Below are positions 3,899-44,927 of a stretch of DNA of 64,000 bases, piece by piece. The notes below the pieces were generated by a model, which saw only the letters and a program-made list of their open reading frames with translations, was not told the DNA's origin and ran no database searches. Source of the stretch: Planctomycetota bacterium (GTDB taxonomy: Bacteria > Planctomycetota > Phycisphaerae > Phycisphaerales > UBA1924); NCBI GenBank assembly GCA_038521625.1, contig JBCBKP010000001.1, forward strand, positions 75,247 through 139,246, written 5' to 3'. Numbering within the stretch: the stretch's first letter is position 1; each line of letters opens with the position of its first letter. The position numbers and the translations under genes were made by a program.

Positions 3899-5701
3899 CT
3901 ACTCCGCCGGGCAGCCCTCGAAGAACAGCCGCACGAACTCGTCGACGTCGGTGTTGGAGACGACGTCGAAGGGCGACGCCAGAGCGGCGACGAGCGGGTC
4001 ATCCGCGAAGAACCGGTTCACGAACGCGCTGACGTCCGCGTTCGAGATCACGCCGAACGGAGCGGAGAGGTCGACTGGTGAGCAGGGGGTCTCGATTGTC
4101 GCGACGATGATCGCTTCAGTACCATCCGTGAAGCTGACATTAAGCGCAAGCTGGCCGAGGTCGTTGAAGCTCCTCGCGCGACCGCCGTCGTCGATCGCAA
4201 ACCCACCGAGCGATGAGATCGTTCGGTTGATCGTGATGTTCGGCTGCGGATTGATGTCGATCACATCTCCTTCGCGGAGGGCCAGCACGAGTTCGCCGTT
4301 GTCGTTCGTCGCCCAGAATCCACGGTCGTTCGCGTCTGTTACACCCGGACCTTCAACTGTCCCGCGGAACGCGAGCTGGCCGGTCCCATTGATCGCCGGC
4401 GGGGAGAGCGTCTGAAATCCGGTCGCGAAGGTCACACCGTCAGCCGTTCCCGGCGCGGGTCGCCCACCAACCGCAATCGGGAGGAGTGTGCCATGCGTGT
4501 CCAGCCAGACGGAGTCAATGAACGTGTCGGGGTCTGACAGCGTCTGCATGTCGGCGGAGAACGCGGCGCGGCCCTCAAGGTCGATGCGCGGTGGCGCGTC
4601 GAAGAACGCGAATCGCATGCCGCTCTCGAGCCCGGGCGCTTGAGTCCCGGAGCGTGCTATCTCCCTGCCGACGACGCCGATCGACCGTTCGTCGTCGAGA
4701 CTGATACCGGGGCCAACGAGCTCCGCTGTGAATCCGAAGCCGCCAAGCAGAGGGTCGATCGACGAACTGAGCGAGAAACCACCGCCCTGGAAGAACCCGA
4801 TGTCGGTGAAGATGGTCCCGTTCGTGATGTCGTAGGCCATATTCCCGGAGAACGCGCCGCCGATCGGCACGATGTTCTCCGGCAGCCCAACGCCCCGCGA
4901 CGCGAAGAGGCCCGTATCCAAGAACGGGTTGATGTTCGGGCCGCCGAGATCTCCACGGAACAGGACCGATCCATTGCTCTCCCGGATGCGAACACCGGAG
5001 AGGGCGTCGAACTCGCTCCCGGGGTCCACATTGGCGACGACCGTGCCTGTGCGCGCGATGAGTTCGGGCGATGCTCCCTCGACGAACCGCCAGATGCTGC
5101 TATCGAAACTGCCCGGGCCGGAGGCATTATCGATGCCGAGGACCATCGCCGTGGTGCCGCTCGAATTCATCGCGATGGCCGGTCCTCGTCCCGAGGCGAC
5201 GTTGAAGGTGATACCAGCCGCCAGCCCCGGCGCCTGCTGCCCGTCTCGCGCGAGCAGCCGCTGGTCCCCGGCAGGGCCGAAGAAGACCGCGTCCCGCGTG
5301 CCGGCCGGAGCGTCCGCGCCTCGGAGATCGGCGAACAAGGCAACATCACCTCTGACGTTCGAGTGAGGCGCCCGCGTCACCGCGAAGCCGTGGAACTGGA
5401 CGTCGCCCGGGATGTCGGGTGGGGTATCGCCGGACTGCGCGACCTTCGTGAGCGCGATGCCGCCGGCCTCGGTCCAGACGCTCTCGCCCAGGCCGAGGTC
5501 GTTCCCGGTATCGCGCAGAAAGGCGAAGAACGTGACATCCCCAGCGTTGTTGATCGTTGGTGTGACGAAGCGATCGAATCGAGCACCCTGAGAAGCGCCG
5601 GGCGCGCGATCGCCGCTCACGGCGACAACCCTCAGCGAGACCTGGCCACCGGCCGCGGCGCACGCGACCGCGAGAACGTTGATCGCTACTGATCGAGTCA
5701 T
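3899..5701 (-). CDS. secreted ~600-aa repeat protein with C-terminal GC-type dockerin-like domain (paralog C)
   Basis: The listed ORF 3899..6310 is over-extended. ATG at 5701 is preceded by GGAGGAGCAACGC and opens MTRSVAINVLAVACAAAGGQ, a signal peptide. C-terminus: CSPVDLSAPFGVISNADVSAFVNRFFADDPLVAALASPFDVVSNTDVDEFVRLFFEGCPAE. The middle carries NGxxVF-type repeats, as in paralogs A and B. Confidence 0.7.
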   Translation of the reverse strand: MTRSVAINVLAVACAAAGGQVSLRVVAVSGDRAPGASQGARFDRFVTPTINNAGDVTFFAFLRDTGNDLGLGESVWTEAGGIALTKVAQSGDTPPDIPGDVQFHGFAVTRAPHSNVRGDVALFADLRGADAPAGTRDAVFFGPAGDQRLLARDGQQAPGLAAGITFNVASGRGPAIAMNSSGTTAMVLGIDNASGPGSFDSSIWRFVEGASPELIARTGTVVANVDPGSEFDALSGVRIRESNGSVLFRGDLGGPNINPFLDTGLFASRGVGLPENIVPIGGAFSGNMAYDITNGTIFTDIGFFQGGGFSLSSSIDPLLGGFGFTAELVGPGISLDDERSIGVVGREIARSGTQAPGLESGMRFAFFDAPPRIDLEGRAAFSADMQTLSDPDTFIDSVWLDTHGTLLPIAVGGRPAPGTADGVTFATGFQTLSPPAINGTGQLAFRGTVEGPGVTDANDRGFWATNDNGELVLALREGDVIDINPQPNITINRTISSLGGFAIDDGGRARSFNDLGQLALNVSFTDGTEAIIVATIETPCSPVDLSAPFGVISNADVSAFVNRFFADDPLVAALASPFDVVSNTDVDEFVRLFFEGCPAE

Positions 5702-5769
5702 GCGTTGCTCCTCCGGGGGAGGAGCGTACTGGCTCGTCGGCGCCGCCGTGACCCGTGTTAACCCCAGAA

Positions 5770-7614
5770 CTACTCCACCGTCACGCTCTTCGCCAGGTTC
5801 CGCGGCTTGTCGACGTCGTGCCCGCGCAGCACCGCCGCGTGGTACGCCATCAGCTGCAGCGGCACCACCGCCAGCATCGGGCTCAACGGCTCCGGCACGT
5901 CCGGGATGTAGAACACGTCCTCGGCGAGCGCGCCGATCTGCGTATCGCCCTCGGTCGCGACCGCGATCACGTGACCGCCGCGGCTGCGGACCTCCTCGAT
6001 GTTGCTCATCACCTTGTCGTACTGGCTGCCGCGCGTCGCGATGAACACCGCCGGCATCCCGTCGTCGATCAGCGCGATCGGCCCGTGCTTCATCTCCGCC
6101 GCCGGCATCCCCTCCGCGTGGATGTACGAGATCTCCTTGAGCTTCAGCGCCCCCTCCAGCGCCGTCGGGTAGTTGTACCCACGCCCCAGGAAAAGCCAGT
6201 TGTCGCGGTCGATGTGCTTGGTCACCACCGTCCGCACGTGCGCGTCGATCGAGAGCAAGCGGTCGATGTGGTCCGGGATCGCCTCCAGGTGACCCATGAG
6301 CTCGGCGCACCGCGCCGAGCTCATGTACCGACGCCGCGCCAGCCAGAGCGCCATCATCGTCAGCACCGTCAGCTGGCCCGTGAACGCCTTCGTGCTCGCG
6401 ACCCCGATCTCCGGCCCGACACGCAGGTACACGCCCGCGTCCGTCTCGCGGCTGATCGTCGAGCCGACCACGTTGATCACGCCCAGCGACAGCGCCCCGC
6501 GGTCCCGGACCTCGTGCAGCGCCGCCAGCGTGTCCGCCGTCTCGCCCGACTGGCTCACGACGATCAGCACCGTCCCCTCGTCCACGATCGGGTTGCGGTA
6601 CCGCAGCTCGCTCGCGTACTCCACCTCGGTCGGGATCGTCGCCAGGTCCTCGAACAGGTACTCGCCCACCATCCCCGCGTGCAGCGCCGTGCCCTGCGCC
6701 GCGATGATGATCCGCTTCGAACGCACCAGCTCCTTGTCGAAGCTGCGCAGCCCGCCGAGCACCACACGCCCCTCGTTGTGGTCCAGCCGGCCACGCAGCG
6801 TGTTGCGCAGCACCCGCGGCTGCTCGAAGATCTCCTTCTGCATGTAGTGCGAGTAGGCGCCCAGCTCGATCTCGCTCAGCTCCAGCTCGAGCTGCATGAT
6901 CTTCGGCGTGATCTCCACGTTGTCGACCGTCGACGTCCGGATCCCGTCCGTCGTGATCCGCGCCACCGTGTAGTCGTCCAGCGTCATCGCACGCGCCGTG
7001 TGCTGGATCACCGCCGAGCCGTCAGAGGCGACCACGTACTCGCCGTCACCCACGCCGATGATCAGCGGGCTGCCCTTGCGCGCGCACACCATCGTCCCCG
7101 GCTCCCGCGTGCTCACCACCGCGATCGCGTACGCGCCCGTCACCTCGCGCAGCGCCGCCTGCACCGCCGTCTCCAGGTCCGTCCCGTTGTCCGGGTCGTA
7201 CAGCTCGGCGATCAGGTTCGCCAAGACCTCCGAGTCGGTCTCGGTGTGGAACGCACGCCCCTTCTCCTTGAGGTAGGTCTTCAGCGCCGCGTAGTTCTCG
7301 ATGATCCCGTTGTGGACCAGCGCGATCGTCTTGCTGTCGTCCGTGTGCGGGTGCGCGTTCGACTCGGTCACCGCGCCGTGCGTCGCCCAACGCGTGTGCG
7401 CCAGCCCGACCGAGCCCGCCAGGTCGCCGTCCCCGTCGATCGCCTCCTCCAGCGCCGAGACCCGCCCGACCGCCTTCCGGATGCTCAGCCGGTCCGCCTC
7501 GTCGACCACCGCGATCCCCGCCGAGTCGTACCCGCGATACTCGAGGCGCTTCAGACCCTCGATCAGGAGTTGCTTGCAGGGGCGTGAGCCCAGATAGGCG
7601 ACGATGCCGCACAT
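5770..7614 (-). CDS. glmS: glutamine--fructose-6-phosphate aminotransferase (isomerizing)
   Basis: Translation from ATG at 7614 begins MCGIVAYLGSRPCKQLLIEGLKRLEYRGYDSAGIAVV, the classic GlmS N-terminal Cys. The 614-aa product has a SIS-domain C-terminus ending ...VTVE. The upstream 39 codons of the listed ORF are spurious. Confidence 0.93.
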   Translation of the reverse strand: MCGIVAYLGSRPCKQLLIEGLKRLEYRGYDSAGIAVVDEADRLSIRKAVGRVSALEEAIDGDGDLAGSVGLAHTRWATHGAVTESNAHPHTDDSKTIALVHNGIIENYAALKTYLKEKGRAFHTETDSEVLANLIAELYDPDNGTDLETAVQAALREVTGAYAIAVVSTREPGTMVCARKGSPLIIGVGDGEYVVASDGSAVIQHTARAMTLDDYTVARITTDGIRTSTVDNVEITPKIMQLELELSEIELGAYSHYMQKEIFEQPRVLRNTLRGRLDHNEGRVVLGGLRSFDKELVRSKRIIIAAQGTALHAGMVGEYLFEDLATIPTEVEYASELRYRNPIVDEGTVLIVVSQSGETADTLAALHEVRDRGALSLGVINVVGSTISRETDAGVYLRVGPEIGVASTKAFTGQLTVLTMMALWLARRRYMSSARCAELMGHLEAIPDHIDRLLSIDAHVRTVVTKHIDRDNWLFLGRGYNYPTALEGALKLKEISYIHAEGMPAAEMKHGPIALIDDGMPAVFIATRGSQYDKVMSNIEEVRSRGGHVIAVATEGDTQIGALAEDVFYIPDVPEPLSPMLAVVPLQLMAYHAAVLRGHDVDKPRNLAKSVTVE

Positions 7615-7864
7615 AGACCAGATCCTCCGGGGGCCGACGCGCATGCTACGGCCCGGCCCGCCCGCGGCCCATGTCGGGTGTACGCCGCCGGCCCGTCCAG
7701 AGTTGGCCCGCCATTCGGACCCGGACGCCACCCCCGATTCTCGATCCCACGCAATCAGAGGGCAGAACCGGCGTTGTGCAGATCAGAGATCCGAAGGACA
7801 CTCGTGGGGCCGGGAGCCGTGGGGGCCCGCCGGCCGGCGACGGACAGGATCGGAGACACAACAG

Positions 7865-8920
7865 ATGAACACATGGACCACGCTCGCCATCGCGGGCCTC
7901 GCCGGCCTCGCCTCGGCGCAGACAACCGACACCACAACCCCGGACGCCGGCCTGCTCTCCGGACCCGAGGTCCGAGAGAACCAGACCGGCGAGAGCCTCG
8001 CCAGCTTCGGCATGACGCCGATGATGCGCGGCCCCGACATGACCCCGGTCGCCGAGCGGGCCCTCGAACGCCTCGAGCTCGACGAGCCCACACGCGCCGA
8101 GATCGACGAGATCCTCGGCGAGCGGGCCGCCGCGATCGACGCCGTCGTCCGCGACAACCTCGACCTCTTCACCCGCCGCTTCGACCAGCGCGGGCTCTCC
8201 AAAGAAGAACGCGAGGCGATCCAGCAGCAGGCCGCCGAGGCGCTCGCCCCCATCACCGAGAACGGCCCGCTGGTCCGCCAGATCGCCCAAGCCCTGCCCG
8301 AAGACCAGCGCGAGCCCTACATCCGCGCGATCGCCGAGCACCGTGACCTGATCCGCCAGCGCCGCGAGATGCGTCGGATGCAGCAGCCCGCCGAGGGCGA
8401 CGCCCAACGCCCGCAGCGCAACCGCGCCGGAGCCCGCGCCGGCGACAGGCCCGAGCCGATGCTCTTCCGCGACGACCCCGCCGCCGCGCCGAAGCGACCG
8501 GAGCGTGCGTCGAACCGCCAAGCCCAGAACCGCCAAGCCCAGAACCGCCAAGCCCAGAACCGCCAGGCCATGCGCCTCATGGGCCAGGTCGCCCGCTCGG
8601 ACACCCAGACCGAACTCCGCCGCTCGCTCGACCGCGTGCTCGGCACCAAGGTCCGCGGCTACGAGCTGCTCGTCAGCGAGCTCGATCTGACGCAGGAGCA
8701 GCAGGCCAAGCTCCGCGAGCTCGGCGAGAAGGGCCTGCTCCGCCCGCCGCCCAGGATGGCCGGACGCAACGGCGACGCCGCACGCCGGGGCGCACGAGAG
8801 GTCCGCCAGCGCGACCGCTTCAACCCCGAGGTCCGCGAGTTCTTCATGAGCCTGAGCCGCGAGCAGCGCCAGCAGATGATCAAGCTGCTCCGAGACGGCG
8901 CGCTGGTCAGCCCCGAGTGA
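7865..8920 (+). CDS. secreted hypothetical protein with LTXXQ-like motifs (Spy/CpxP-like periplasmic protein?)
   Basis: ATG at 7865 opens MNTWTTLAIAGLAGLASAQ, a signal peptide; the listed start at 7604 is upstream junk. The protein is charged and helical, with ELDLTQEQQAKL and LDEPTRAEIDEIL motifs and a 4x NRQAQ repeat. It is divergent from glmS. Confidence 0.55.
   Translation: MNTWTTLAIAGLAGLASAQTTDTTTPDAGLLSGPEVRENQTGESLASFGMTPMMRGPDMTPVAERALERLELDEPTRAEIDEILGERAAAIDAVVRDNLDLFTRRFDQRGLSKEEREAIQQQAAEALAPITENGPLVRQIAQALPEDQREPYIRAIAEHRDLIRQRREMRRMQQPAEGDAQRPQRNRAGARAGDRPEPMLFRDDPAAAPKRPERASNRQAQNRQAQNRQAQNRQAMRLMGQVARSDTQTELRRSLDRVLGTKVRGYELLVSELDLTQEQQAKLRELGEKGLLRPPPRMAGRNGDAARRGAREVRQRDRFNPEVREFFMSLSREQRQQMIKLLRDGALVSPE
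8513..8572 (+). repeat. 15-bp in-frame tandem repeat x~4 (AACCGCCAAGCCCAG) encoding (NRQAQ)4
   Basis: Direct reading: three perfect copies plus one degenerate copy inside the 7865..8920 CDS. Confidence 0.8.
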
Positions 8921-8993
8921 TCCCGGATCTGCCGGAGTGAGAAGCAGGTTGGGCTGATCCCTAGCTCGGGCGCTCGGGCCCGTGCGCACGAGG

Positions 8994-9016
8994 CCGGCCG
9001 CCGACGCGGCCGGTTT
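8994..9016 (+). terminator. GC-rich hairpin between convergent genes (possible intrinsic terminator)
   Basis: CCGGCCG-ccgacg-CGGCCGG, a 7-bp stem, followed by TTT. It lies between the stop of the 7865..8920 (+) gene and the stop of the 9021..9626 (-) gene. Confidence 0.4.
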
Positions 9017-9020
9017 CGAT

Positions 9021-9626
9021 TCAGGCCGTCCCGTCGCCCGCGTTCTGCTGGTCCTCGGCGTCGGCCAGGCTCGTGAACGCCGCGAACCCGAACGGCGTCG
9101 CCGCCGGCTGGTGCGCCCGCTGCATCTGCTGCTGCATCGCCTGCTGCTGCTGGGCCGCCAGGTTCAACCGCTCGATCAGCTGGTCGCTCAGCGCGTGGAA
9201 GCTCGCGATCTCGTGCAGCGGCAGCGTGTAGACCTCGCCGCCCGGCGTGCGGATCTGGAAGACCGTGCAGGTCACGTCGTTGGCGAGCATCTTGTGCCGC
9301 TCGATCGTCTTCTGGTCGTCCGCCGTCGGCTGCTCGTTGCCGATCCCGCACGAGAACACCGGCACGATGTCCGCGATCGGGATCCGCTGCCCCAGCCGCG
9401 TGATGATCGCCAGCCGTCCGTCGAACAGCTCCGATTCCGGGGAGCCGCCCTGGGCCGCCCCCGACGCCGTCGCCGAGAGCCGGCCCCCGCTCGCCGCCGC
9501 CGTCGCCGCCAACGCCGAGAGGATCTCGCGCATCACGTTCTGCCAGAAGGTCTCACGCGTCGCGCCGGGCCCGCCCGCGGGCTTGAACGGCGGCGGCGTG
9601 ATCGCCGGTGGATGGTGCTCGGTCAT
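9021..9626 (-). CDS. hypothetical protein (Gln-rich C-terminus)
   Basis: The minus frame gives a compositionally normal protein: MTEHHPPAITPPPFKPAGG...FSCGIGNEQPTADDQKTIERHKMLANDVTCTVFQIRTPGGEVYTLPLHEIASFHALSDQLIERLNLAAQQQQAMQQQMQRA... The overlapping plus-strand ORF is Arg-rich junk. Start chosen at the ATG at 9626; the start is uncertain. Confidence 0.5.
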   Translation of the reverse strand: MTEHHPPAITPPPFKPAGGPGATRETFWQNVMREILSALAATAAASGGRLSATASGAAQGGSPESELFDGRLAIITRLGQRIPIADIVPVFSCGIGNEQPTADDQKTIERHKMLANDVTCTVFQIRTPGGEVYTLPLHEIASFHALSDQLIERLNLAAQQQQAMQQQMQRAHQPAATPFGFAAFTSLADAEDQQNAGDGTA

Positions 9627-9866
9627 GCCCGAGCGTAGGTGGTGGGCCCGCGCCATCGGCCCCGGGCCCCGGATCAGGACCGCCGGCTCCGGGGACGCCG
9701 GCCTCTCGTGCATCCGGCGAAGCCTGCGCAGCCGGCAGGGTCGGCTCTCGGACCTGACCCCGCAGAAACCACGGGCCACAGTCTTGTGTCAGACGTGCCG
9801 ATCCGAACTCCCGGACCCAGGACGGAGCGCGAGGGTCCGCGGCCGCGTGGCAGGGAGGCGAGTGAG

Positions 9867-10166
9867 ATGGCGGGCGACCCCAAGAGCTTCGAGGACATGC
9901 GTGACATCCTGGGCCGGCTCGACCGTCGCATCAGCGACGCCAGAGAGGCCCGGACAGGCGAGAGCGACGCGGACGAGCCCGCCAGCCCGGTCGACACCGA
10001 GCGACGCATCGGCACCGGCAGCGACGACGCCGAGTCTCGCCCGTCCACCCCCGTCAACGGCATCTGGTCCGCGCGGACCAGCACCGCCGGCTCGCCGACG
10101 CCGCCGGCCCGCTCGCCCTACGGGCGGGCCAAGCCGATCCGTCGCGACGGCGACCAGAGCTGGTAA
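9867..10166 (+). CDS. small acidic/disordered hypothetical protein (~99 aa)
   Basis: ATG at 9867 is preceded by CAGGGAGGCGAGTGAG. Product: MAGDPKSFEDMRDILGRLDRRISDAREARTGESDADEPASPVDTERRIG... GC3 is high. No recognisable domain. Confidence 0.3.
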   Translation: MAGDPKSFEDMRDILGRLDRRISDAREARTGESDADEPASPVDTERRIGTGSDDAESRPSTPVNGIWSARTSTAGSPTPPARSPYGRAKPIRRDGDQSW

Positions 10167-10359
10167 ACCCCACAGCGGGAGGCCGGCGCCAACCGAGGCC
10201 TCGACCTCGAGAGCCCGGAGCGTGGGCGACGGGTTTCCGGCCTCCGGCATACGTCGCGAGACACCGAGCCACCACGCCCCGTTCTTGCGAGCCGGCCGCC
10301 GATCCCCGCCGATCCAAGGCGTATCATCTGTTTCCGCGGGCGAGAGTCCGCGGTGTGTT

Positions 10360-10430
10360 AGGGGATTGGTGTAACGGTAGCACGAATGGTTCTGGTCCAT
10401 TTAGTCGGGGTTCGAATCCCTGATCCCCTG
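10360..10430 (+). tRNA. tRNA-Gln (anticodon CTG)
   Basis: Manually folded, 71 nt. Acceptor AGGGGAT pairs with ATCCCCT. D-stem GTGT/GCAC. Anticodon stem AATGG/CCATT with loop TTCTGGT, giving anticodon CUG. T-arm CGGGG-TTCGAAT-CCCTG. Discriminator G. No encoded CCA. Confidence 0.85.
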
Positions 10431-10515
10431 CTTTAGCCTTCGCGTGCGGCCTCCGCCGCCCGCTCGCTCCTGCACGGCCGCGCGAGATCAACACGCGAGC
10501 CCGAACGGACCGCAG

Positions 10516-10541
10516 GCCCGCCCTTCGGCGGGCTTTCTCTT
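10516..10541 (+). terminator. intrinsic terminator after tRNA-Gln
   Basis: GCCCGCC-cttc-GGCGGGC followed by TTTCTCTT, the canonical stem plus U-run geometry. Confidence 0.55.
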
Positions 10542-10601
10542 GCGCACGCCACGCACGGGCGCCCGAAGCGCCGCGATCCGTGCCCCCAATAAGCTGCCGG
10601 C

Positions 10602-10772
10602 ATGGCCGGCTGGGTCGTCATCCTGATCGTCGGCTTCGTCGTCTTCGACGTCCTGCTCATCGCCGGCCTGTTCATCTGGCTCGGCGCGAGGGCCCGGTCG
10701 GGCGAGGACAACGCCCCCGGCTGGTACCTCATCTGCACCGAGTGCGGGCGGGTATTTCGGCGGTTGCTTTGA
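10602..10772 (+). CDS. small membrane protein (56 aa), below the ORF-track size cutoff
   Basis: ATG at 10602 gives MAGWVVILIVGFVVFDVLLIAGLFIWLGARARSGEDNAPGWYLICTECGRVFRRLL. This is one TM helix. GC3 is almost uniformly G/C, as in the neighbouring real genes. Confidence 0.35.
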   Translation: MAGWVVILIVGFVVFDVLLIAGLFIWLGARARSGEDNAPGWYLICTECGRVFRRLL

Positions 10773-11046
10773 CTCATTCAACGATTGTCTTCGCGGAGAC
10801 TTCGGCGTCGATCCACCTTTCGAGGTTGTCTGGCGGCACGCGTCCCGTTCCCGCGAGACGCTCGGATATCCCGAGACGATCCGCTGGCTTGAGGAACGCG
10901 TCCAGAACTGCCACCCAACCAACCGGGCGATGATGGCAGAGAGGCTCGAGAAGGCGCGTCGCAGCGAGGGTGAGACGGTCTTCGACATCCTGGTCGAACT
11001 CATCGAGGACGCCGACGAGGTGACGCTCAGGTTCGTCGATTGACGA

Positions 11047-36943: not shown

Positions 36944-38374
36944 TCAGGTGTTCGCGCCGGCGTGCTTCCGCGCGTCGGTGCGGGCGATGATGTCGCTGAC
37001 GCCGGTCTGGTTGAAGCCCTTGAACCCGTCGTTGCGCTCGAGGTTCTCGAGGTGGCTGCCCAGGGCGCCGTCCTTGCGGAAGCTGTCCGCCTGCTCGCGG
37101 GTGATCCAGCCCTTGTCGACGCAGAGCCCGAGCCGCTGCTCGACGGGGATCCACAGCTCGCCCTCTGTGAACGCCTGGCGGAGGTAGGGGAAGGTCGTGA
37201 ACGGGGCCATGGTCTTGATGCCCGACTCACGCTCGAGCTGGTTGACCAGCGAGGCGTGGTCGAACTGGCACTCGAGGTGGTGCATGCCCGCCTGGAGCAT
37301 GCTCTCGCCGTGCAGGGCGGTCCACAGGCCGACGGTGCCGACGCTCTCGGCGTCGGAGACCTCGAAGCCCTCGTGGGCGAAGTCGCCGTGGATCTCCTCG
37401 GCGGACATGTCGACGTCGGCGAAGACCACGATCTTGGTGACCGGCTGCTCGAGGACCTGGGCGCCCCAGTTCGCCTCGGCGCCGGCGTAGAAGCGCTCGC
37501 GGCAGTGCAGGCCGAGCTTCTCGAGGATCTCGATGACACGCGGGAAGTTCTGGCGGCTGCAGCGGTAGGTGTGGTGGTCGTGGTTGGCCCAGCCGAGGCC
37601 GAGCTTCTGCTGGCGGGCGTACTGGACCTGCGCGGCGCGGTTGCGGCGCTGCCAGTACTCGCGCTCGGTGCGGAAGAAGATGTCGCAGGCCCAGTCGCGG
37701 CCCAGCTCCTCGACGGCGGCGTCGACCATGTTGCTCAGGTCGTCGAAGCCGCGGGTGTCGGCCTCGGCGCCGACGCCGAAGTCGCGCGGGCGGCTGCGGA
37801 GCCGCTCGGCGTGGTGCGCCGCGGCGATCCGGTCCTCGGGCAGGTCCTCGGTGAGGCCGAAGCCGTCGTAGCCGCGCCGGGCCATGACCCACAGCGCCGC
37901 GCGGTCGCCCATCATCGCCGGGGCCCAGCGGGCGCGGCTGAGCGGCTCGCCCTGGGCGTGCTCGATGCCGGGGATCTGCTGCGCGGCGAAGAAGTCGCTG
38001 ACGCGCTCGACCTTGACGCCGACCGACATGCGGTCGCTCTCGGTGAGCAGGACGTCGCAGAACAGTCCTTTGCGCTGCTCGAAGGCGTAGCCGATGTCCT
38101 CGTCGGCGAACTCGGTGGTCTTGGGCGTGAAGCCGGCGGCCTCGAGCTGCCCGCGGATCTCGTCGTTGTTGGGCGTGAGGATGACGCCGACCCAGTCCTT
38201 GAACCGCGTGCCGGTCTCGTCACGCATGCGGTCGGCGAGCCGCTGCGCGTCGGGGCAGCGGGCGAGGAACGTCGTCAGGAGCGAATCGATGAGCTTCTGC
38301 GCCTCGGGCTGCGGCTCCCACTGCCAGTTGCCCACGGTCGGATCGGCGGCGGGCTGGGACGGGGCGGTTGTCAT
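36944..38374 (-). CDS. DUF1338/YdcJ-like (HglS-family 2-oxoadipate dioxygenase/decarboxylase?) protein, tentative
   Basis: 476 aa. His-rich segments GWANHDHHTYRCSRQNFPRV and ALHGESMLQAGMHHLECQFD; length and motif order resemble my memory of E. coli YdcJ. Recalled from memory, so hedged. Confidence 0.35.
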   Translation of the reverse strand: MTTAPSQPAADPTVGNWQWEPQPEAQKLIDSLLTTFLARCPDAQRLADRMRDETGTRFKDWVGVILTPNNDEIRGQLEAAGFTPKTTEFADEDIGYAFEQRKGLFCDVLLTESDRMSVGVKVERVSDFFAAQQIPGIEHAQGEPLSRARWAPAMMGDRAALWVMARRGYDGFGLTEDLPEDRIAAAHHAERLRSRPRDFGVGAEADTRGFDDLSNMVDAAVEELGRDWACDIFFRTEREYWQRRNRAAQVQYARQQKLGLGWANHDHHTYRCSRQNFPRVIEILEKLGLHCRERFYAGAEANWGAQVLEQPVTKIVVFADVDMSAEEIHGDFAHEGFEVSDAESVGTVGLWTALHGESMLQAGMHHLECQFDHASLVNQLERESGIKTMAPFTTFPYLRQAFTEGELWIPVEQRLGLCVDKGWITREQADSFRKDGALGSHLENLERNDGFKGFNQTGVSDIIARTDARKHAGANT

Positions 38375-38599: not shown

Positions 38600-39919
38600 A
38601 TGGATCGGTTCGTGATCGAGGGCGGGCGCCGGCTCGAGGGGCGGCTGACGGTCAACGGCTCCAAGAACGCGGCGCTGCCGCTGATGGCCGCGCCGCTGCT
38701 GACCGACCGGGCGGTGACGCTGCGGGGCGTGCCGGGGCTGGCGGACATCGCGAACATGCGTCGGCTCCTCGCCGAGCTGGGGGTGGAGATCGGCGCCGCC
38801 GCCGAGCGGCCGACCGACCCGCCCGGCGCGGGCGTGACGCTGCGGTCGGCCGACGAGACCCGGTCCCACGCGCGGTACGACATCGTCCGGACCATGCGGG
38901 CGAGCATCTGCGTTCTCGGACCGCTGCTGGCGCGGCGCGGCTCGGCGAAGGTCTCGATGCCCGGCGGCTGCGCGATCGGGCAGCGCCCGGTCGACCTGCA
39001 CCTGCGCGGGCTGCGGGCGCTCGGGGCGACGATCGAGCTCGACGGGGGCGACATCGTCGCCGAGGCGCCCGGCGGGAAGCTGCGGGGCGACACGATCTTC
39101 ATGGGCGGCCCGTTCGGCAGCACGGTGCTCGGGACGGCCAACGTGCTCAGCGCCGCGACGCTGGCCGAGGGCACCACGGTGATCGAGGCGGCCGCCTGCG
39201 AGCCCGAGATCGTCGACCTGGCCAAGCTGCTGACGGCGATGGGCGCGCGGATCGAGGGCGCCGGCTCGCCCCGGATCACGGTCCACGGCGTCGACGAGCT
39301 CGGCGGCGCCGAGCACGCGGTCATGCCCGACCGGATCGAGGCGGCGACCTACATGTGCGCCGCGGCGATCACCGGCGGCGACGTGCTGCTCGAGCGGTGC
39401 CCGCTCGACGCGCTGCTCGCCGTGGTCGATCGGCTGCACGCGATCGGCGTGAAGGTCGAGCGGGCGCGCCCGGACCAGGACGCGATCGCCTGCGACGTGC
39501 GTGTGACCGCCGGGCACGAGCTCAGGCCCGTCGAAGTGACGACACAGCCGCACCCCGGCTTTCCGACCGACGCGCAGGCGCAGCTGATGGCGCTGCTGTG
39601 TCTGGCGGACGGCAACAGCGTGGTGACCGAGAAGATCTTCCCCGAGCGGTTCATGCACGTCGCCGAGCTGAGCCGCATGGGCGCCAGCCTGTTCCGCCAG
39701 GGCGCGACCGTGGTCGTCTCGGGCGTGCGGGGATTGACGGGGGCGCCGGTGATGGCGAGCGACCTGCGGGCCTCGGCCGGGCTGGTGCTGGCGGGTCTGG
39801 CGGCTCGCGGCACGACGATCGTCAACCGCGTGTACCACCTCGACCGCGGCTACGAGCAGATGGAAGAACGCCTCGCCAAGCTGGGCGCCGCGATCGAGCG
39901 GACGGGCGAGAGCGACTGA
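38600..39919 (+). CDS. murA: UDP-N-acetylglucosamine 1-carboxyvinyltransferase
   Basis: ATG at 38600 is preceded by GGGAGG. Product begins MDRFVIEGGRRLEGRLTVNGSKNAALPLMAA. Active-site PGGCAIGQRPVDLH is present and the C-terminus ...VYHLDRGYEQMEERL. The listed ORF 36962..39919 is over-extended through antisense DNA. Confidence 0.93.
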   Translation: MDRFVIEGGRRLEGRLTVNGSKNAALPLMAAPLLTDRAVTLRGVPGLADIANMRRLLAELGVEIGAAAERPTDPPGAGVTLRSADETRSHARYDIVRTMRASICVLGPLLARRGSAKVSMPGGCAIGQRPVDLHLRGLRALGATIELDGGDIVAEAPGGKLRGDTIFMGGPFGSTVLGTANVLSAATLAEGTTVIEAAACEPEIVDLAKLLTAMGARIEGAGSPRITVHGVDELGGAEHAVMPDRIEAATYMCAAAITGGDVLLERCPLDALLAVVDRLHAIGVKVERARPDQDAIACDVRVTAGHELRPVEVTTQPHPGFPTDAQAQLMALLCLADGNSVVTEKIFPERFMHVAELSRMGASLFRQGATVVVSGVRGLTGAPVMASDLRASAGLVLAGLAARGTTIVNRVYHLDRGYEQMEERLAKLGAAIERTGESD

Positions 39920-39920
39920 G

Positions 39921-40340
39921 TCAGCGCCTCAGCGTCAGACGCCCGAGGCTGCGCAGGCCGTCGGTTCCGGCCCCGAACTCGAGCCCCGCGACGCGGCGAC
40001 CCAGTCCGAGGTCGAGCAGCGACGAGCCGGCCGGCCACGCGGGCCGCGGCGGCGTGATCCAGGCGATCTTCGCGTGCCGTGTCGAATCGGGGGCGATCCC
40101 GGTCGCGGCCCGACGCGTGGCGCGGGCGTCGTCTTCCTCCGCGAGCGACTCGCCCGTGAACGACCCCGCGGCCGGGATCCTCATCGATGTGACCGCGGCC
40201 CGGGCCGAGCGCGGGTACTCGAACGGCGCGGCGAGCAGCGAGCGCGAGGCGCCGCCCATCGCGGACGTCCGGAACAGGTGCGTCTGGGCGGGCGCGGCGC
40301 CGGCGCACAGGATGACGGCGAGCATCGCGGTTCGTCGCAT
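39921..40340 (-). CDS. small secreted hypothetical protein (139 aa)
   Basis: ATG at 40340 gives MRRTAMLAVILCAGAAPAQTHLF, a signal peptide. The stop is 2 bp from the murA stop, so the two genes converge. Confidence 0.4.
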   Translation of the reverse strand: MRRTAMLAVILCAGAAPAQTHLFRTSAMGGASRSLLAAPFEYPRSARAAVTSMRIPAAGSFTGESLAEEDDARATRRAATGIAPDSTRHAKIAWITPPRPAWPAGSSLLDLGLGRRVAGLEFGAGTDGLRSLGRLTLRR

Positions 40341-40561
40341 GACAGAGCCCCCTCTACGAGACCGGATCTTCCGTGGGGCCGCACGCGGCCCCGACCGGAC
40401 TCGCGACAAGTCCAGCCGATCGCCGCCGCGCGTTCAAGAGGGGTGGTTCGATGTAACGCGTTTCTTCAGCGCTCGCTCACACGAGAGCGTTTACATCGTG
40501 CAGTTATTCACACGAGATCGGACCATCGGGCCGCTCTGCGCGGCCCCCGATCAGGCAGGAC

Positions 40562-41164
40562 TCAGTCCGGCAGGCCGCGCGCGTCCAGGTCTTCGAGCCG
40601 ATCGACGAACGCGGCGCCGCACTCCGGGCAGGTCGTGGCGCCGGGCGCGCGCCCATAGCCGCACTCGATGCACTGGTTGCGTTCGAGGCGGACGACGATC
40701 CGGTAGCGGCGGTAGAGCGTCGCGGCGCCGACCGCGACAACGGCCAAGACGAGCAGCGCGCTGAGCACACCCGCCGCGAACTCGGCGACGCCGGTCCAGA
40801 CGATCTCGCTCGAGATGACGTGCTCGCGTCGCCCCATCCCGGTCAGCAGCGTGCGCGGGGCGCCGGCCGGCCACTCGATCTCGAGCGTCGCGAGGTCGTT
40901 GGCGGTGAGCGTGAGCAGCTCGGAGGTATCGACGACGATCACCTCCTCGGTCAGGAACCGCCCGCGGCAGAAGGGCAGCTCGCGCCCGCGTGCGAGATGG
41001 CTGACCCGCACGCTGACGCCGAGCGGGCTGATTTCCCTGACGTCGAGACCGTTCTGGATGAGTCGGTCCGGCCGGAAGCCGGGCATGGCGGCGGAGACGC
41101 GCCAGAGTCCGAGCGCGAGGAAGAGCAATACGCCGGCGAGCCACCATCCGCGGGGACGCTTCAC
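40562..41164 (-). CDS. membrane protein with C-terminal zinc ribbon (paralog 1 of 3)
   Basis: The GTG at 41164 overlaps the TGA of paralog 2 as GTGA. Product begins KRPRGWWLAGVLLFLALGLW, a TM helix. A ~130-aa variable periplasmic domain follows, then a second TM helix, then CIECGYGRAPGATTCPECGAAF. The listed upstream 27 codons are the alternate-frame reading of the paralog-2 tail. Confidence 0.6.
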   Translation of the reverse strand: MKRPRGWWLAGVLLFLALGLWRVSAAMPGFRPDRLIQNGLDVREISPLGVSVRVSHLARGRELPFCRGRFLTEEVIVVDTSELLTLTANDLATLEIEWPAGAPRTLLTGMGRREHVISSEIVWTGVAEFAAGVLSALLVLAVVAVGAATLYRRYRIVVRLERNQCIECGYGRAPGATTCPECGAAFVDRLEDLDARGLPD

Positions 41165-41775
41165 GCGTCGGTCCTCGTCGGGTTCGAGGATCCCGGCTCT
41201 GCGGACGAGGCGACCGGCCTGATCGGATAGGCCTCGCCGCACTCGGGGCAGCTATCGGTGCCCTCAGCGAGCGCATAGCCGCATGCCGGGCATTCGAATC
41301 GCGACCATCTCGCCGCACCGGTTGAACGTCGGATCTCTCGATAAGACCAGATCGAGAGCGACGCCAACGCGAGCGCGATCGCGATGAGGTAGAGGCCCGG
41401 CTCGACGAAGCCGAGCACCCAGAGCTGTTCATCTTGAGCATGCTCGTGCCGGCCTGCCGTTGTGAGCATCGCCTCGGGGAGGTTGCCCGCGGTTGTGACG
41501 CCCGATCGCCGAAGCATCGTCCTCGAGATCGGCATGTCATAGTTCTGCGAGACGACGGTCACGAACTCGCTGCTGTACGCTCCTCGTGCGAGGATGAACC
41601 GACGCTCTCGCACGCCGCCGACGACCTCGACTCGCCAGCCGAACAGCTCGCTTGCGTGGTCGAATGAATCTCGTGCGGGTCGCTCCGTTGGCAGCGCAAG
41701 ACCGGCCGAGCTGAACAACACGGCAAGACTCAATAGGAAGAAGCTGGGGAGCCGGCATCTACGGGGGCGATTCAC
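41161..41775 (-). CDS. membrane protein with C-terminal zinc ribbon (paralog 2 of 3)
   Basis: The GTG at 41775 overlaps the TGA of paralog 3. Product begins NRPRRCRLPSFFLLSLAVLF, a TM helix. The tail CPACGYALAEGTDSCPECGEAYPIRPVASSAEPGSSNPTRTDA is almost identical to that of paralog 3. Confidence 0.6.
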   Translation of the reverse strand: MNRPRRCRLPSFFLLSLAVLFSSAGLALPTERPARDSFDHASELFGWRVEVVGGVRERRFILARGAYSSEFVTVVSQNYDMPISRTMLRRSGVTTAGNLPEAMLTTAGRHEHAQDEQLWVLGFVEPGLYLIAIALALASLSIWSYREIRRSTGAARWSRFECPACGYALAEGTDSCPECGEAYPIRPVASSAEPGSSNPTRTDA

Positions 41776-42557
41776 GGGTCTGTCCTCGTCGGGTTCGAGG
41801 ATACCGGCTCTGCGGAGGAGGCGACCGGCCTGATCGGATAGGCCTCGCCGCACTCGGGGCAGGAGGTCCGGTCGGTCACCATCGGGTAGTCGCACGAGGG
41901 GCATCGACGCATCGCGATCCGGCCCGCGCGCGATCGGAGCCGATCGCTGGTCAGAAAGATCGCGATCAGCGAGAGGAGCGCGAGGCCGTACAACGCCCAG
42001 GATCCGTACCCCGCCAGCGCGGGACGCCAGCTGAACTCGGTGCGTCGGACCGTTGTCGTGCCCGGCTGGAAGCCGCGCTCGAGGCGCCACAGGTAGCTGA
42101 GGTGCCGGTAGCTGAACCAATTGATCGACGACCCGTCGCCGACTCGGTGCTCCAGGAGCGCGGCGTATAGCGCGTCGGACGCGATCGAGTGCTGCGTTCT
42201 GTTGTCGATGTCGACCGCGAGCTCGGTCCGCCAGAGCCCCGGCAGGAAGGTCTCGTCATGGCCGATGCTGACGTCGTACAGGACGTCGGCGTTCGGATCG
42301 CGAACCGGTGCGGCGGGCCAGGCACCCCGCGGCGCCACCGCGAGCGTTCCGTCCTCGCGGAGCATCAGCGATTCGGACGATGTGCCTGCGGTGCTGAGAT
42401 ACCTGCCCTCGCTCCGCGAAGCCCAGTCGCCCAGCGCCATCGCGAACGCGAGCGAGCCGAGCATGACGACGAGCAGGATCGCCAGGCGGATCCGGCGCCG
42501 GGGGAGAACGCGGGAGTTCGCGCGGATGAGGCGGTTGCTAGTCCTCGTCAAACCCAT
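41772..42557 (-). CDS. membrane protein with C-terminal zinc ribbon (paralog 3 of 3)
   Basis: ATG at 42557 gives MGLTRTSNRLIRANSRVLPRRRIRLAILLVVMLGSLAFAMALG, overlapping the HPr stop by 20 bp. The listed TTG at 42566 is an alternative. Tail: CPSCDYPMVTDRTSCPECGEAYPIRPVASSAEPVSSNPTRTDP. Confidence 0.6.
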   Translation of the reverse strand: MGLTRTSNRLIRANSRVLPRRRIRLAILLVVMLGSLAFAMALGDWASRSEGRYLSTAGTSSESLMLREDGTLAVAPRGAWPAAPVRDPNADVLYDVSIGHDETFLPGLWRTELAVDIDNRTQHSIASDALYAALLEHRVGDGSSINWFSYRHLSYLWRLERGFQPGTTTVRRTEFSWRPALAGYGSWALYGLALLSLIAIFLTSDRLRSRAGRIAMRRCPSCDYPMVTDRTSCPECGEAYPIRPVASSAEPVSSNPTRTDP

Positions 42558-42813
42558 GGTTGACAAGCTCTTTGAGGGCCTTGCAGCAGGCCGCGGCGTC
42601 CTCGCCCTCGGCGATGATCTCCAGGACGGTGCCCTTGGTCGCCGCCAGCATCATCATCGACATGATCGAGGAGGCGTCGGCTTCTTCGGCGCCCTTACGG
42701 ACCGTCACCTTGCTCTGGAAGCCCTGCGCGACATCGACGAACAGCATCGCCGGGCGCGCGTGCATCCCGAGCGGGTTGCTGATCGTGACCGTGATGGCGC
42801 AGCGCTCGGGCAC
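42538..42813 (-). CDS. HPr-family phosphocarrier protein (NPr/PtsH-like)
   Basis: 91 aa. ITVTISNPLGMHARPAMLFV places the active-site His in the GxHARPA context. Confidence 0.85.
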   Translation of the reverse strand: MPERCAITVTISNPLGMHARPAMLFVDVAQGFQSKVTVRKGAEEADASSIMSMMMLAATKGTVLEIIAEGEDAAACCKALKELVNHGFDED

Positions 42814-42902: not shown

Positions 42903-43379
42903 CTAGCCGGCGAGCTGCTGCGCGTCGGCCTCTTTGAGCAGGTCGATGACCTCCTCGGCGGTCGAGGCCTGGCGCAGGAACCTCCGGAACGTGTCCTTGC
43001 TCAGGCTCTTGAAGATCACCTCCATCGCCTGCAGGTGCTCCTCCGGCCGGTCGGCGGGGCTCAGGAGCAGGACGATCGAGTAGACCGGCTGGCGGTCGAG
43101 GGCGGCGAACTCCACCCCGTTCGAGCTCAGGCCGATCGCCGCAGAGATCCGATCGATCTCCGGGTGCTTGACGTGCGGGACGGCGACGCCGCGCCCGAAG
43201 CCGGTCGAGCCCTTCTTCTCGCGTTCGATCATGAGACCGAGCAGGTCGCCGCGCCGCTCGGCGGGGGTGGCGCCCGATTCGATGAGCCTGTCGAGCAACT
43301 CCGCGAGCGCGTCGTCGCGCTCGGTGGCCCGCAGGTCTGTCACGATCGCGCCCTCTACGGCGATCTCCGTCAGCTTCAT
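42903..43379 (-). CDS. ptsN: PTS EIIA (fructose/mannitol/nitrogen-type, PtsN-like)
   Basis: ATG at 43379 is preceded by GGAGG and gives MKLTEIAVEGAIVTDL. GFGRGVAVPHVKHP places the active-site His as in EIIA-Ntr. 158 aa. The upstream 57 codons of the listed ORF are junk. Confidence 0.8.
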   Translation of the reverse strand: MKLTEIAVEGAIVTDLRATERDDALAELLDRLIESGATPAERRGDLLGLMIEREKKGSTGFGRGVAVPHVKHPEIDRISAAIGLSSNGVEFAALDRQPVYSIVLLLSPADRPEEHLQAMEVIFKSLSKDTFRRFLRQASTAEEVIDLLKEADAQQLAG

Positions 43380-43405: not shown

Positions 43406-43705
43406 TCAGCGTCGCTCGAGCTTGAGCTTCTCCTTGAAGTCCGTGAGCTGGCGGGTGGCCTTGTGGGTCGCGTCGTCGATCGCCTTGATCAGCGTCTCGC
43501 CGCGCCCGTGGGCCACGAAGTCGTCGTGCGTCTCGACATCGACGATGCACTCGGCGTGGAACTCGTGGTCGTTCGCACGGCTCAGCGTGTAGGTGATCTG
43601 CTGCGTCCGGTCGAAGTACTTCGTCAGCTTCGTGCCGGTCTCCTCGCAGCGGGCCTTGGCCTCATCACGCACGTCCAGATCCCGCCCGACCACATCGATC
43701 CGCAT
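43406..43705 (-). CDS. hpf: ribosome hibernation-promoting factor (short HPF/RaiA)
   Basis: ATG at 43705 is preceded by GGGAGG. Product: MRIDVVGRDLDVRDEAKARCEETGTKLTKYFDRTQQITYTLSRANDHEFHAECIVDVETHDDFVAHGRGETLIKAIDDATHKATRQLTDFKEKLKLERR. 99 aa. The rest of the 415-aa ORF 43406..44653 is antisense junk. Confidence 0.85.
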   Translation of the reverse strand: MRIDVVGRDLDVRDEAKARCEETGTKLTKYFDRTQQITYTLSRANDHEFHAECIVDVETHDDFVAHGRGETLIKAIDDATHKATRQLTDFKEKLKLERR

Positions 43706-43770
43706 CCGATTTCCCTCCCGCGAGTCCGTCATGGGCCAACAACCCCCGACCACACCACAGTCTAACAGAC

Positions 43771-44733
43771 TTAGGACGCCTCGCGATCCGAAAGCCCCGT
43801 CTTGGTGGGTGTGCGGGCCGATTCGTGCGCCGACTCGGCGTCGGCCACGAGCGAGCCCTCGCGGTCCGCCTTCACCGCCGGCTTTGGCAGGCTCGGGGCG
43901 TCGCTGTTCTCCTCGGTCGATTCGGGCGTCAGGACGCCGGCGGTGATCACGAACCGCAGCGCCTGCTCGACGGTCATGTCGAGCTTCTTGACCTCGTCGC
44001 GCCGGGCGTTGATCACGAAGCCGGTCATCGGCGTCGGCGAGGTCGGGACGAAGATCGAGACCATCTCGCCGCCGCCGGCCTCCCGCACCGCCTTGAAGCT
44101 GTTGCCGGTGACCAGGCCGACAGTCCAGACGCCCTCGCGGGGGTACTGGACGAGGACGACCTCGCTGAACGCCTTCATCGGGCTGTCGCCGAAGATCAGA
44201 TCGACGACCTGTTTGACGTGCGGGTAGACCTGCTTGAACCCGGGGATCCGGGCGATGAGCTTCTCGAGCCGGGTGTAGAGCTGCCTGCCGAGATAGTTGC
44301 TCAGCAGCAGGCCCGCGAGGTAGATCAGGACGATCGCGACCACGAGGCCGGTGGCGCCGAGGTACCAGTGCTTCTCCCACTCGCCCCGGAACTGATCGGC
44401 GCGGATGTCGTCGCGTGTTCTGGAGCGGAGCGAGGCGAGTTCTGCCTCGGTCTCGACCTCGCGGAGGACGCCCTCCTCCTGCTCCCGCGCGATGCGCCGG
44501 TCGATCTGCTCGTCGGTGACCTGGAACCACGTCGGCAGGTCGGTCTCTTCGACGAGCACCGGCGTGCCCCAGAGCACGGCGGCGCGGATGCCGGTGTTGA
44601 TCGGCTGCGCGACGTTGTTGTAGAGGAAGACCGAGACCTGGAAGAGCAGCCACAGGGTCACGATCGAGGGCAGCAGGATCGCCAGCCCTCGCCCGAAGAA
44701 CCGCTTGAAATCACCGCTGAACGACGAACTCAT
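43771..44733 (-). CDS. DUF502-family membrane protein
   Basis: N-terminal FGRGLAILLPSIVTLWLLFQV, then RIPGFKQVYPHVKQVVDLI, then GFVINARRDEVKKLDMTVEQALRFVITAGV, all as in DUF502. There is a ~70-aa insertion between the TM helices. 320 aa. Confidence 0.65.
   Translation of the reverse strand: MSSSFSGDFKRFFGRGLAILLPSIVTLWLLFQVSVFLYNNVAQPINTGIRAAVLWGTPVLVEETDLPTWFQVTDEQIDRRIAREQEEGVLREVETEAELASLRSRTRDDIRADQFRGEWEKHWYLGATGLVVAIVLIYLAGLLLSNYLGRQLYTRLEKLIARIPGFKQVYPHVKQVVDLIFGDSPMKAFSEVVLVQYPREGVWTVGLVTGNSFKAVREAGGGEMVSIFVPTSPTPMTGFVINARRDEVKKLDMTVEQALRFVITAGVLTPESTEENSDAPSLPKPAVKADREGSLVADAESAHESARTPTKTGLSDREAS

Positions 44734-44853: not shown

Positions 44854-44927
<74 letters not shown>

Follow-up and report, generated by a model that had tools for sequence, protein, structure and literature searches.

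Three consecutive genes for small membrane proteins with a C-terminal zinc ribbon lie directly behind hpf-ptsN-HPr in a Planctomycetota bacterium of the order Phycisphaerales. Their presence there raises the question of what kind of proteins they encode, how they came to be chained to one another, and whether their position ties them to the nitrogen phosphotransferase system (nitrogen-PTS, or PTS-Ntr). We analyzed a stretch of 64,000 nucleotides (contig JBCBKP010000001.1, positions 75,247 to 139,246), here called the window, in whose numbering all positions of the locus are given; the three genes are called P1, P2, and P3. The explanation that we favor, with a probability of about 60%, is that they are a lineage-specific extension of the hpf-ptsN-HPr unit and encode three translationally coupled small envelope proteins that would form a hetero-oligomer.

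An initial annotation of the window had described three open reading frames (ORFs) of common layout, and we found them on the minus strand, in order P1 (41772-42557; 261 amino acids [aa], ATG start), P2 (41161-41775; 204 aa, GTG start), and P3 (40562-41164; 200 aa, GTG start), using ORF calls and Kyte-Doolittle hydropathy, with the 200-aa NCBI protein AAFR38_00500 corresponding to P3. In this window of 70% GC, the GC content at third codon positions (GC3) of the three frames is 0.88, 0.76, and 0.91, respectively, which is the pattern of coding sequence in this genome. At NCBI the window proteins are AAFR38_00500, _00505, and _00510 of a Planctomycetota metagenome-assembled genome (MAG), all entered as “hypothetical protein.” Two further public assemblies, L001 (Logan SRR22824296) and L002 (GCA_039820845.1), carry the locus with 100% sequence identity, and it is therefore not an assembly artifact.

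P1 stands directly 3′ of the HPr/NPr gene (42538-42813, minus strand; Pfam PTS-HPr, E = 2.2e-29; stop codon 42538-42540), and its ATG (42557) lies 20 nt inside that gene, so that both the overlap and the position behind hpf-ptsN-HPr on the same strand are as first described. This ATG is supplied by the codons CAT GGG, for His-Gly, in the HPr C-terminus NHGFDED* (42538-42560, minus strand). Since the HPr C-terminus GFDE[DE] is kept in 78 relatives, the P1 start has arisen within native HPr codons.

The chaining of the genes is visible at the two internal junctions. The plus strand reads tcac at 41772-41775 and at 41161-41164, which is GTGA on the minus strand and makes a 4-nt stop/start overlap in each case, exactly as annotated. 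A GAGGA motif stands 7 nt upstream of both GTG codons (41783-41787 for P2 and 41172-41176 for P3), and both junctions consequently combine an overlapping stop/start with a Shine-Dalgarno (SD) sequence inside the upstream gene at a spacing of 5 to 9 nt. SD sequences are in use in this genome region, GGAGG, AGGAG, or GAGG being found upstream of ptsN, murA, orf476, and orf139, while a 5-mer SD-like core occurs in merely 2.6% of random 12-nt windows. Within the tails of the upstream genes, GC3 is 0.83 to 0.86 in the upstream gene's own frame versus 0.69 to 0.73 in the alternative frame. An independent gene caller also returned proteins of 204 aa for P2 and 200 aa for P3 with 4-nt overlaps, and the alignment of P2 with P3 begins at residue 1 in both proteins. 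On these four lines of evidence the GTG codons within the GTGA overlaps are the best start models for P2 and P3, in preference to other candidate starts.

In the Prokaryotic Genome Annotation Pipeline (PGAP) model (AAFR38_00505), P2 has 186 aa, and its start falls within the first hydrophobic segment. Starting at the GTG gives 204 aa and restores a basic N-terminus and an anchor homologous to those of P3 and of the metagenomic protein P0029 (see below), and the PGAP start is probably wrong.

Both junctions can also be folded around the SD sequence. The hairpin UCCUCG-AACCCGA-CGAGGA at 41783-41801 (minus strand), whose 3′ arm holds the GAGGA of P2, appears in the minimum-free-energy and centroid folds, and so does an identical hairpin before P3 (41172-41190, minus strand). 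The two copies are identical and hence carry no covariation signal, and a role for the hairpin is presumed. As a separate matter, a programmed −1 frameshift that would fuse the genes was considered and rejected, because no slippery heptamer was seen by eye in the junction sequence.

Each junction lies within a direct repeat of 131 nt (D1) on the minus strand, one copy at 41732-41862 between P1 and P2 and the other at 41121-41251 between P2 and P3. The two copies of this cassette are 611 nt apart and 88% identical, and a core of 101 nt (41762-41862 versus 41151-41251) is 94% identical. The cassette comprises the CPECG knuckle, a 24-codon proline/serine-rich tail, GAGGA, the GTGA overlap, and ~13 codons from the beginning of the next gene. 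The initial annotation had described near-identical 3′ ends of ~90 bp. That description holds upstream of the stop, where P1 and P2, compared backward in 30-nt bins, are 93, 93, and 100% identical before identity falls to about 37%; it misses the other end of the repeat, which continues about 40 nt past the stop into the downstream gene.

The age of this similarity was judged from four-fold degenerate sites in codons for identical amino acids. In the tail 14 of 16 such sites are alike, as against 17 of 34 in the bodies of P1 and P2 and 13 of 41 in those of P2 and P3 (Fisher p = 0.013 and 0.0002, respectively), where about 36% would be expected from composition alone. The similarity has sharp bounds, and its synonymous divergence is far below that of the flanks, as looked for in a gene conversion tract. 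With synonymous sites saturated in the bodies and near-identical in the tail, the gene bodies are old duplicates and the junction cassette is young. This indicates that the cassette was homogenized by gene conversion, or recently copied, on old paralogs, in keeping with the conversion or recent duplication first proposed for the 3′ ends. P3, which has no downstream paralog, ends in a short and different tail (AAFVDRLEDLDARGLPD) that resembles the tail of P0029, and this fits the cassette as a unit that belongs between genes. A 9-mer at the 3′ end of HPr (GACGAGGAC) recurs in both junction cassettes, probably by chance.

Outside the cassette, the three proteins are not equally related. P2 and P3 are homologous from end to end (E = 4e-14, with 29% identity over 190 aa). 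P1 without its tail matches P2 over only 36 residues of the second transmembrane (TM) helix and the first knuckle (E = 0.046) and matches P3 in the zinc ribbon only (E = 1e-5); the P1 loop domain has no detectable similarity to the loops of P2 or P3. Judged by these alignments, P2 and P3 are two clear paralogs, while P1 shares the TM2/zinc module with them and has its tail in common through conversion. The description of the array as three paralogs with three aligning N-termini is accordingly to be narrowed: it is right for P2 and P3, along their full length, and does not extend to P1, whose N-terminus does not clearly align with theirs.

All three proteins nevertheless follow one plan, namely, an Arg-rich N-terminus, a hydrophobic segment, a loop, TM2, an Arg-rich linker, and a C-terminal CxxC-x10-CPEC motif, the two hydrophobic segments of each protein being taken from Kyte-Doolittle peaks. 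In P1 the first hydrophobic segment spans aa 25-43, TM2 lies at about aa 185-207, and CPSC-x10-CPEC occupies aa 219-236, followed by a 25-aa P/S-rich tail to which the P2 tail is nearly identical. The loop is not of a uniform ~130 aa, as first thought, but measures about 140 aa in P1 and is shorter in P2 (about 90 aa) and P3 (about 100 aa). The zinc-ribbon motifs are encoded at 41850-41903 (P1), 41239-41292 (P2), and 40619-40672 (P3). A Cys4 motif is present in all three, as annotated, although not in the uniform form CPxCG-x8-CPECG: P1 has CPSCD and P3 has CIECG as its first knuckle, and the G is followed by a spacer of 9 residues instead of 8.

The Arg-rich flank after TM2, read by the positive-inside rule, together with the need for reduced cysteines, would place the Cys4 ribbon in the cytoplasm. 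Instead of serving as an anchor, the first hydrophobic segment might be cleaved off as a signal peptide. Candidate signal-peptidase sites picked by eye are AMA|LG in P1 (aa 38-45), GLA|LP in P2 (aa 23-28), and SAA|MP in P3 (aa 22-28), and if these sites are used the mature proteins could be single-pass type I proteins instead of having two TM helices. AlphaFold2 models reached a mean predicted local distance difference test (pLDDT) score of 50.8 (P1 alone) and 59.1 (P3, modeled from a three-sequence alignment), and the loop domains scored below about 60.

Is the array a regular part of the locus behind ptsN and HPr? We compared 80 Phycisphaerales loci that were retrieved with the ptsN probe at 60 to 69% identity. 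The hpf-ptsN-HPr block is well kept, HPr following ptsN in 78 of the 80, and a convergent murA follows HPr in about half of the loci (about 40/80), mostly within 20 to 300 nt. Homologs of P1, P2, P3, or the nearby gene orf139 were found in none (0/80). P1 to P3 are thus not found next to ptsN/HPr in relatives, as a conserved PTS-Ntr operon component would be, and the array is best seen as a lineage-specific insertion; the regulatory link to the PTS that had been read from its placement is not borne out by this comparison. The insertion between HPr and murA measures about 2.6 kb and holds P1 to P3 and orf139. No flanking repeats, tRNA, or integrase was found at its edges as a mobile-element signature.

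The gap between HPr and murA is a variable insertion spot. In another Phycisphaerales MAG (L015, 6982-10959), it is occupied by genes for two secreted proteins of ~600 aa, which are paralogs and have dockerin-like C-termini. Only three ORFs with CxxC..CPEC occur in 877 kb of related loci (L011, 6892-7257; L081, 7008-7994; L079, 2539-2595), and two of these three (L011 and L081) are directly downstream of HPr, for which a binomial test on these three events gives p of about 0.04. This is a weak hint that the HPr-adjacent spot repeatedly receives zinc-ribbon genes.

To what wider group do the proteins belong? Word-index homolog searches of 5.8 billion clusters, with extended P2, a profile of P3, P0029, and P2, and P1 as queries, returned the window's own proteins and P0029 only. 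P0029 is a stand-alone metagenomic protein of 203 aa on a 780-bp contig, with a short N-terminus; its loop domain is homologous to the loops of P3 and P2, and it is the closest relative of P3 outside the window. P1 is an orphan, its database matches being itself and, via the tail, P2, and no relative of P1 was found in scans of metagenome contigs. A profile scan of such contigs did yield two single-copy proteins of the same layout, with a match limited to TM2 and the zinc ribbon.

A much larger group emerged from a HMMER profile scan of 1.84 billion representatives (E ≤ 1e-3), in which 1,225 clusters at 50% identity were matched. Apart from the window proteins and P0029, all match in TM2, linker, and zinc ribbon only, and 19 to 25 of the top 150 have an identical layout with two TM helices and a C-terminal ribbon. 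We use as a working definition of the class a C-terminal pair of Cys4 knuckles within about 15 to 20 aa of a TM helix, after an Arg-rich linker. P1, P2, and P3 all display the combination of TM, Arg-rich linker, and CxxC[G/D]Y-x8-CPECG. The relatives match zinc-ribbon Pfam families only (DZR in 73 of 135), and ten members that were looked up are metagenomic “hypothetical protein” entries without taxonomy. Literature searches on the motif and on zinc-ribbon membrane proteins of Planctomycetes turned up no account of the class, and ZitP/GltJ as the only precedent. By these profile matches, P1 to P3, with their orphan domains, belong to a very large, undescribed class of membrane proteins that carry a zinc knuckle at the C-terminus.

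Tandem modules, whether in one fused protein or in neighboring genes, are a recurrent though not universal feature of the class. A parallel is locus L086 (8001-10840), on an unrelated metagenomic contig, where four modules of the same layout are in tandem and two of them are fused in a protein of 468 aa. Like P1 to P3, these modules consist of a basic N-terminus, TM, a loop of ~150 aa, TM, an Arg-rich linker, and CxxCGY...CPECG, and they are chained or fused. The gene of the third module begins at TGAATG without a gap, and the last gene follows 41 nt further on. In the fused protein the linker runs from the zinc ribbon through 24 aa and KRTKR to the TM helix. The tail plus start in our array has the same geometry, with the zinc ribbon, 24 aa, stop/start, KRPR, and TM. 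The two arrays differ in that the loops are unrelated, the L086 junctions are TGAATG or fusions and not GTGA, no cassette is repeated, and the neighborhood is another one. Upstream of the L086 array, the opposite strand encodes a polytopic membrane protein whose N-terminus bears a CPRCGYNL..CPECG ribbon (array and this gene together, 4087-10840).

Comparison with known systems bears out the earlier view that the family cannot be placed. Searches of P1 to P3 against Pfam, NCBIfam, PADLOC, PHROGs, and PDB sequences gave sub-threshold, generic zinc-ribbon matches only. The Pfam families DZR (PF12773), Zn_Ribbon_1 (PF13240), and Zn_ribbon_3 (PF13248) share with our proteins two CxxC knuckles about 10 residues apart beside a TM helix, but P1 to P3 score at best 17 to 19 bits against cut-offs of 25 to 27 (for DZR, 18.5 versus 27.3 bits) and stay below the gathering threshold. 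Moreover, these families cover only the metal site of ~20 aa and neither the TM helices and loop nor a function. LapB/YciM, with a C-terminal rubredoxin-like domain, and TcaA, with an N-terminal ribbon, TM, and an extracellular domain, are also envelope-related proteins with a membrane-proximal CxxC...CxxC; in their case only the metal knuckles align, with scores under the cut-offs (E = 0.21 for LapB and 0.41 for TcaA), and P1 to P3, which have no tetratricopeptide repeats and another domain order, belong to neither kind.

Zinc-binding anti-sigma (ZAS) factors of the zf-HC2 type resemble P1 to P3 in that they, too, sit in the membrane and combine a zinc site on the cytoplasmic side with a domain in the periplasm. 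They have an N-terminal HxxxCxxC domain and a neighboring gene for an extracytoplasmic-function (ECF) sigma factor, however, whereas the Cys4 site of P1 to P3 is C-terminal. The zf-HC2 family (PF13490) had no match at E ≤ 1 in P1 to P3, and there is no sigma-factor gene among the genes identified from DUF502 to murA. On these two grounds we ruled out that P1 to P3 are anti-sigma factors.

For the function of a zinc knuckle as a handle for protein interactions in the cytoplasm, the best precedent, by analogy, comes from ZitP of Caulobacter and GltJ of Myxococcus, whose cytoplasmic Cys4 zinc ribbons bind PopZ and MglB, respectively (PMC11135422). As in P1 to P3, a minimal Cys4 ribbon is tethered to the inner membrane along with a periplasmic region. 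Their ribbon is N-terminal and of the MJ0042 type, however, while that of P1 to P3 is C-terminal and comes without GYF or DUF3426. The MJ0042 model TIGR02098 matched P3 only, with 11.9 bits where the cut-off is 20.9 (E = 0.14); P1 to P3 are not of the ZitP/GltJ type, and homology to ZitP/GltJ is not shown by this search.

How might the array have arisen, and what might it do? In the explanation that we favor, a block of ~2.6 kb, made up of three chained inner-membrane genes and one orphan gene for a secreted protein, would have been inserted between HPr and murA. Each of the three proteins is one module of the class: a basic N-terminus and an anchor (or signal peptide) lead into a periplasmic domain that evolves fast, which is followed by a TM helix, a linker rich in Arg, and a Cys4 knuckle of the form CxxC[G/D]Y-x8-CPECG. 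P1 to P3 are presumably co-transcribed with HPr, and P2 and P3 would be translated by termination-reinitiation, with the upstream ribosome opening the SD hairpin and the products made in a roughly fixed stoichiometry. The cassette may have been homogenized by gene conversion, or else copied while the array grew by unequal exchange at the 16-mer that codes for CPECG. The three products would then come together in the membrane as a hetero-oligomer that corresponds to the fused multi-module relatives. Its variable domains in the periplasm would bind or sense a ligand in the envelope, while its zinc knuckles would serve on the cytoplasmic side as handles for protein interactions. The genetic anatomy in this explanation, namely, the operon extension, the GTGA starts, the converted cassette, the old paralogy of P2 and P3, and the lineage-specific insertion, is well supported by the alignments, start sites, and synteny described above. 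Drawing on the fused relatives and on ZitP/GltJ, we infer that P1 to P3 are a co-expressed, hetero-oligomeric envelope receptor or scaffold.

Several observations weigh against this explanation. SD sequence, GTGA, and hairpin amount to one observation and not two, because one junction is a copy of the other. Nor does the hairpin stand out statistically, with folding z-scores of −0.5 and −2.7 for the junction segments. Although 95 of the top 150 HMMER matches have at least two zinc-ribbon motifs, this share overstates the frequency of fusion, since the HMMER ranking favors multi-module proteins. Single-copy members of the class stand in unrelated conserved contexts, and tandem arrangement is thus not universal and no partner gene is conserved: a single-copy gene of the same layout lies between gatC and a VTT/DedA gene in three loci (L083, 2978-3844; L089, 943-1662; L090, 485-1261) and between a MoxR-type AAA gene and a VTT gene in another (L085, 8001-8816). 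The GC3 of P2, at 0.76 lower than that of its neighbors, could mean relaxed constraint.

Four other explanations were weighed against the favored one. The array could be tied to the nitrogen-PTS itself, either with the knuckles as docking or regulatory targets of NPr/EIIA-Ntr or as a periplasmic input into the pathway. Co-transcription with HPr is almost unavoidable when P1 starts inside the HPr coding sequence, and two of the three CxxC..CPEC ORFs in the related loci are HPr neighbors; that statistic, however, counts three events, the L011 and L081 proteins share the zinc motif only, and the HPr|murA gap takes unrelated insertions too (L015). With HPr abutting murA in most of the 80 loci and P1 to P3 homologs in none of them, we consider such a tie unlikely. 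A bolder proposal, that the whole class of TM hairpin plus CxxCGY...CPECG is a large family of modular envelope receptors of which this trio has been wired onto the nitrogen-PTS, its knuckles docking NPr/EIIA-Ntr, is a long shot. About as doubtful as the simple PTS tie is the idea that the trio is one multi-module gene that has been fissioned by frameshifts and is possibly decaying, the tails being former linkers and the downstream parts poorly or not expressed. Fused multi-module relatives are indeed common, the linker geometry equals that of the fused L086 protein, the P2 and P3 frames are open far upstream of their GTG codons, and the GC3 of P2 is reduced. Both junctions nonetheless have an intact GAGGA at the right distance and a start exactly at the stop. 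Coding-type GC3 in all frames (0.76 to 0.91), identical sequence in three assemblies, the absence of a slippery heptamer by eye, and the existence of the P0029 homolog as a stand-alone gene of 203 aa also speak against decay.

Two further ideas are less probable still. In one, P2 and P3 start at GTG codons within the upstream CPECG codons (41853 and 41242), so that the genes overlap by 78 nt and the conservation of the cassette reflects dual coding. In either copy the alternative frame is open and has a GTG start, and dual coding would account for the scarcity of synonymous changes. The peptide it would encode, VRRGLSDQAGRL[LV]RRAG, is weakly like MGLTRTSNRLIRAN of P1 through a GL....RL.R resemblance, a similarity that is not significant (shuffle p = 0.05 to 0.10). 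These longer starts were rejected as the primary model, with both GC3 in the tail and SD evidence pointing the opposite way: the upstream frame has the higher GC3, no SD sequence precedes the GTGs at 41853 and 41242, gene callers pick the short forms, and the N-terminus of P0029 is short. In the other, the three genes are accessory conflict or surface-variation genes, whether phage-related or concerned with immunity or recognition. Orphan, fast-evolving loops on a conserved anchor, the lineage-specific insertion, and a GC dip across P2 would suit such a role, which we hold to be improbable. PADLOC and PHROG gave no meaningful match, tblastn found no match to P3 in plasmids or to P1 in phages, neither an integrase nor a tRNA nor a flanking repeat accompanies the insertion, and some members of the class are single-copy genes that are conserved among housekeeping neighbors.

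Taken by itself, the locus is a modest result, being ordinary biology with a tidy architecture, and it has no bearing on any long-standing open question. It corrects an annotation, as the PGAP start truncates the first hydrophobic segment of P2. The locus also gives a clean example of chained GTGA start/stop overlaps, of a conversion tract confined to a junction, and of an accessory cassette on the 3′ end of a conserved regulatory operon. Of more general interest is the C-terminal module, which is found in at least 1,225 clusters, often fused or in tandem, and has no name, curated family, or known function. A class that large, in which a conserved membrane-proximal zinc site is combined with hypervariable periplasmic domains, merits a family definition.

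The remaining features of the region are as follows. On the minus strand the gene order is DUF502, hpf, ptsN, HPr, P1, P2, P3. The DUF502 gene (43771-44733) and hpf (Ribosomal_S30AE, about 43406-43750) were recognized with Pfam, as was ptsN (EIIA-Ntr; 42903-43379; PTS_EIIA_2, E = 3.9e-24), from which the synteny probe was taken. The convergent murA (38600-39919, plus strand; EPSP_synthase, E = 2e-93) forms the far border of the insertion. Folding of 40440-40570 gave a GC-rich hairpin, GGGCCGC-GCAGA-GCGGCCC (40528-40546, minus strand), which lies 16 nt beyond the P3 stop, lacks a U-tract, and is a possible end of the transcript. A simple terminator scan found none on the minus strand, and scanning for promoter and terminator consensus sequences is uninformative in DNA of 70% GC. 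Within P2, the region 41300-41750 has a GC content of 63 to 66% and a GC3 of 0.76, as compared with ~70% and ~0.9 in its neighbors; this could reflect relaxed constraint or a different history.

The other gene within the HPr|murA insertion, orf139 (39921-40340, minus strand; GC3 of 0.91), lies 220 nt beyond P3 and is a called gene in L001. It is an orphan with a signal-peptide-like N-terminus (MRRTAMLAVILCAGAAPAQT), and it had no match in Pfam, NCBIfam, PADLOC, or PHROG. Rfam detected two tRNAs only in the window, tRNA-Ile(GAT) at 44854-44927 (minus strand), just upstream of the DUF502 gene, and tRNA-Gln(CTG) at 10360-10431 (plus strand), neither of which flanks the insertion. A 476-aa ORF, orf476 (36944-38374, minus strand), is without a Pfam match; by tblastn it has a homolog in 2 of the 80 related loci (L003 and L070).

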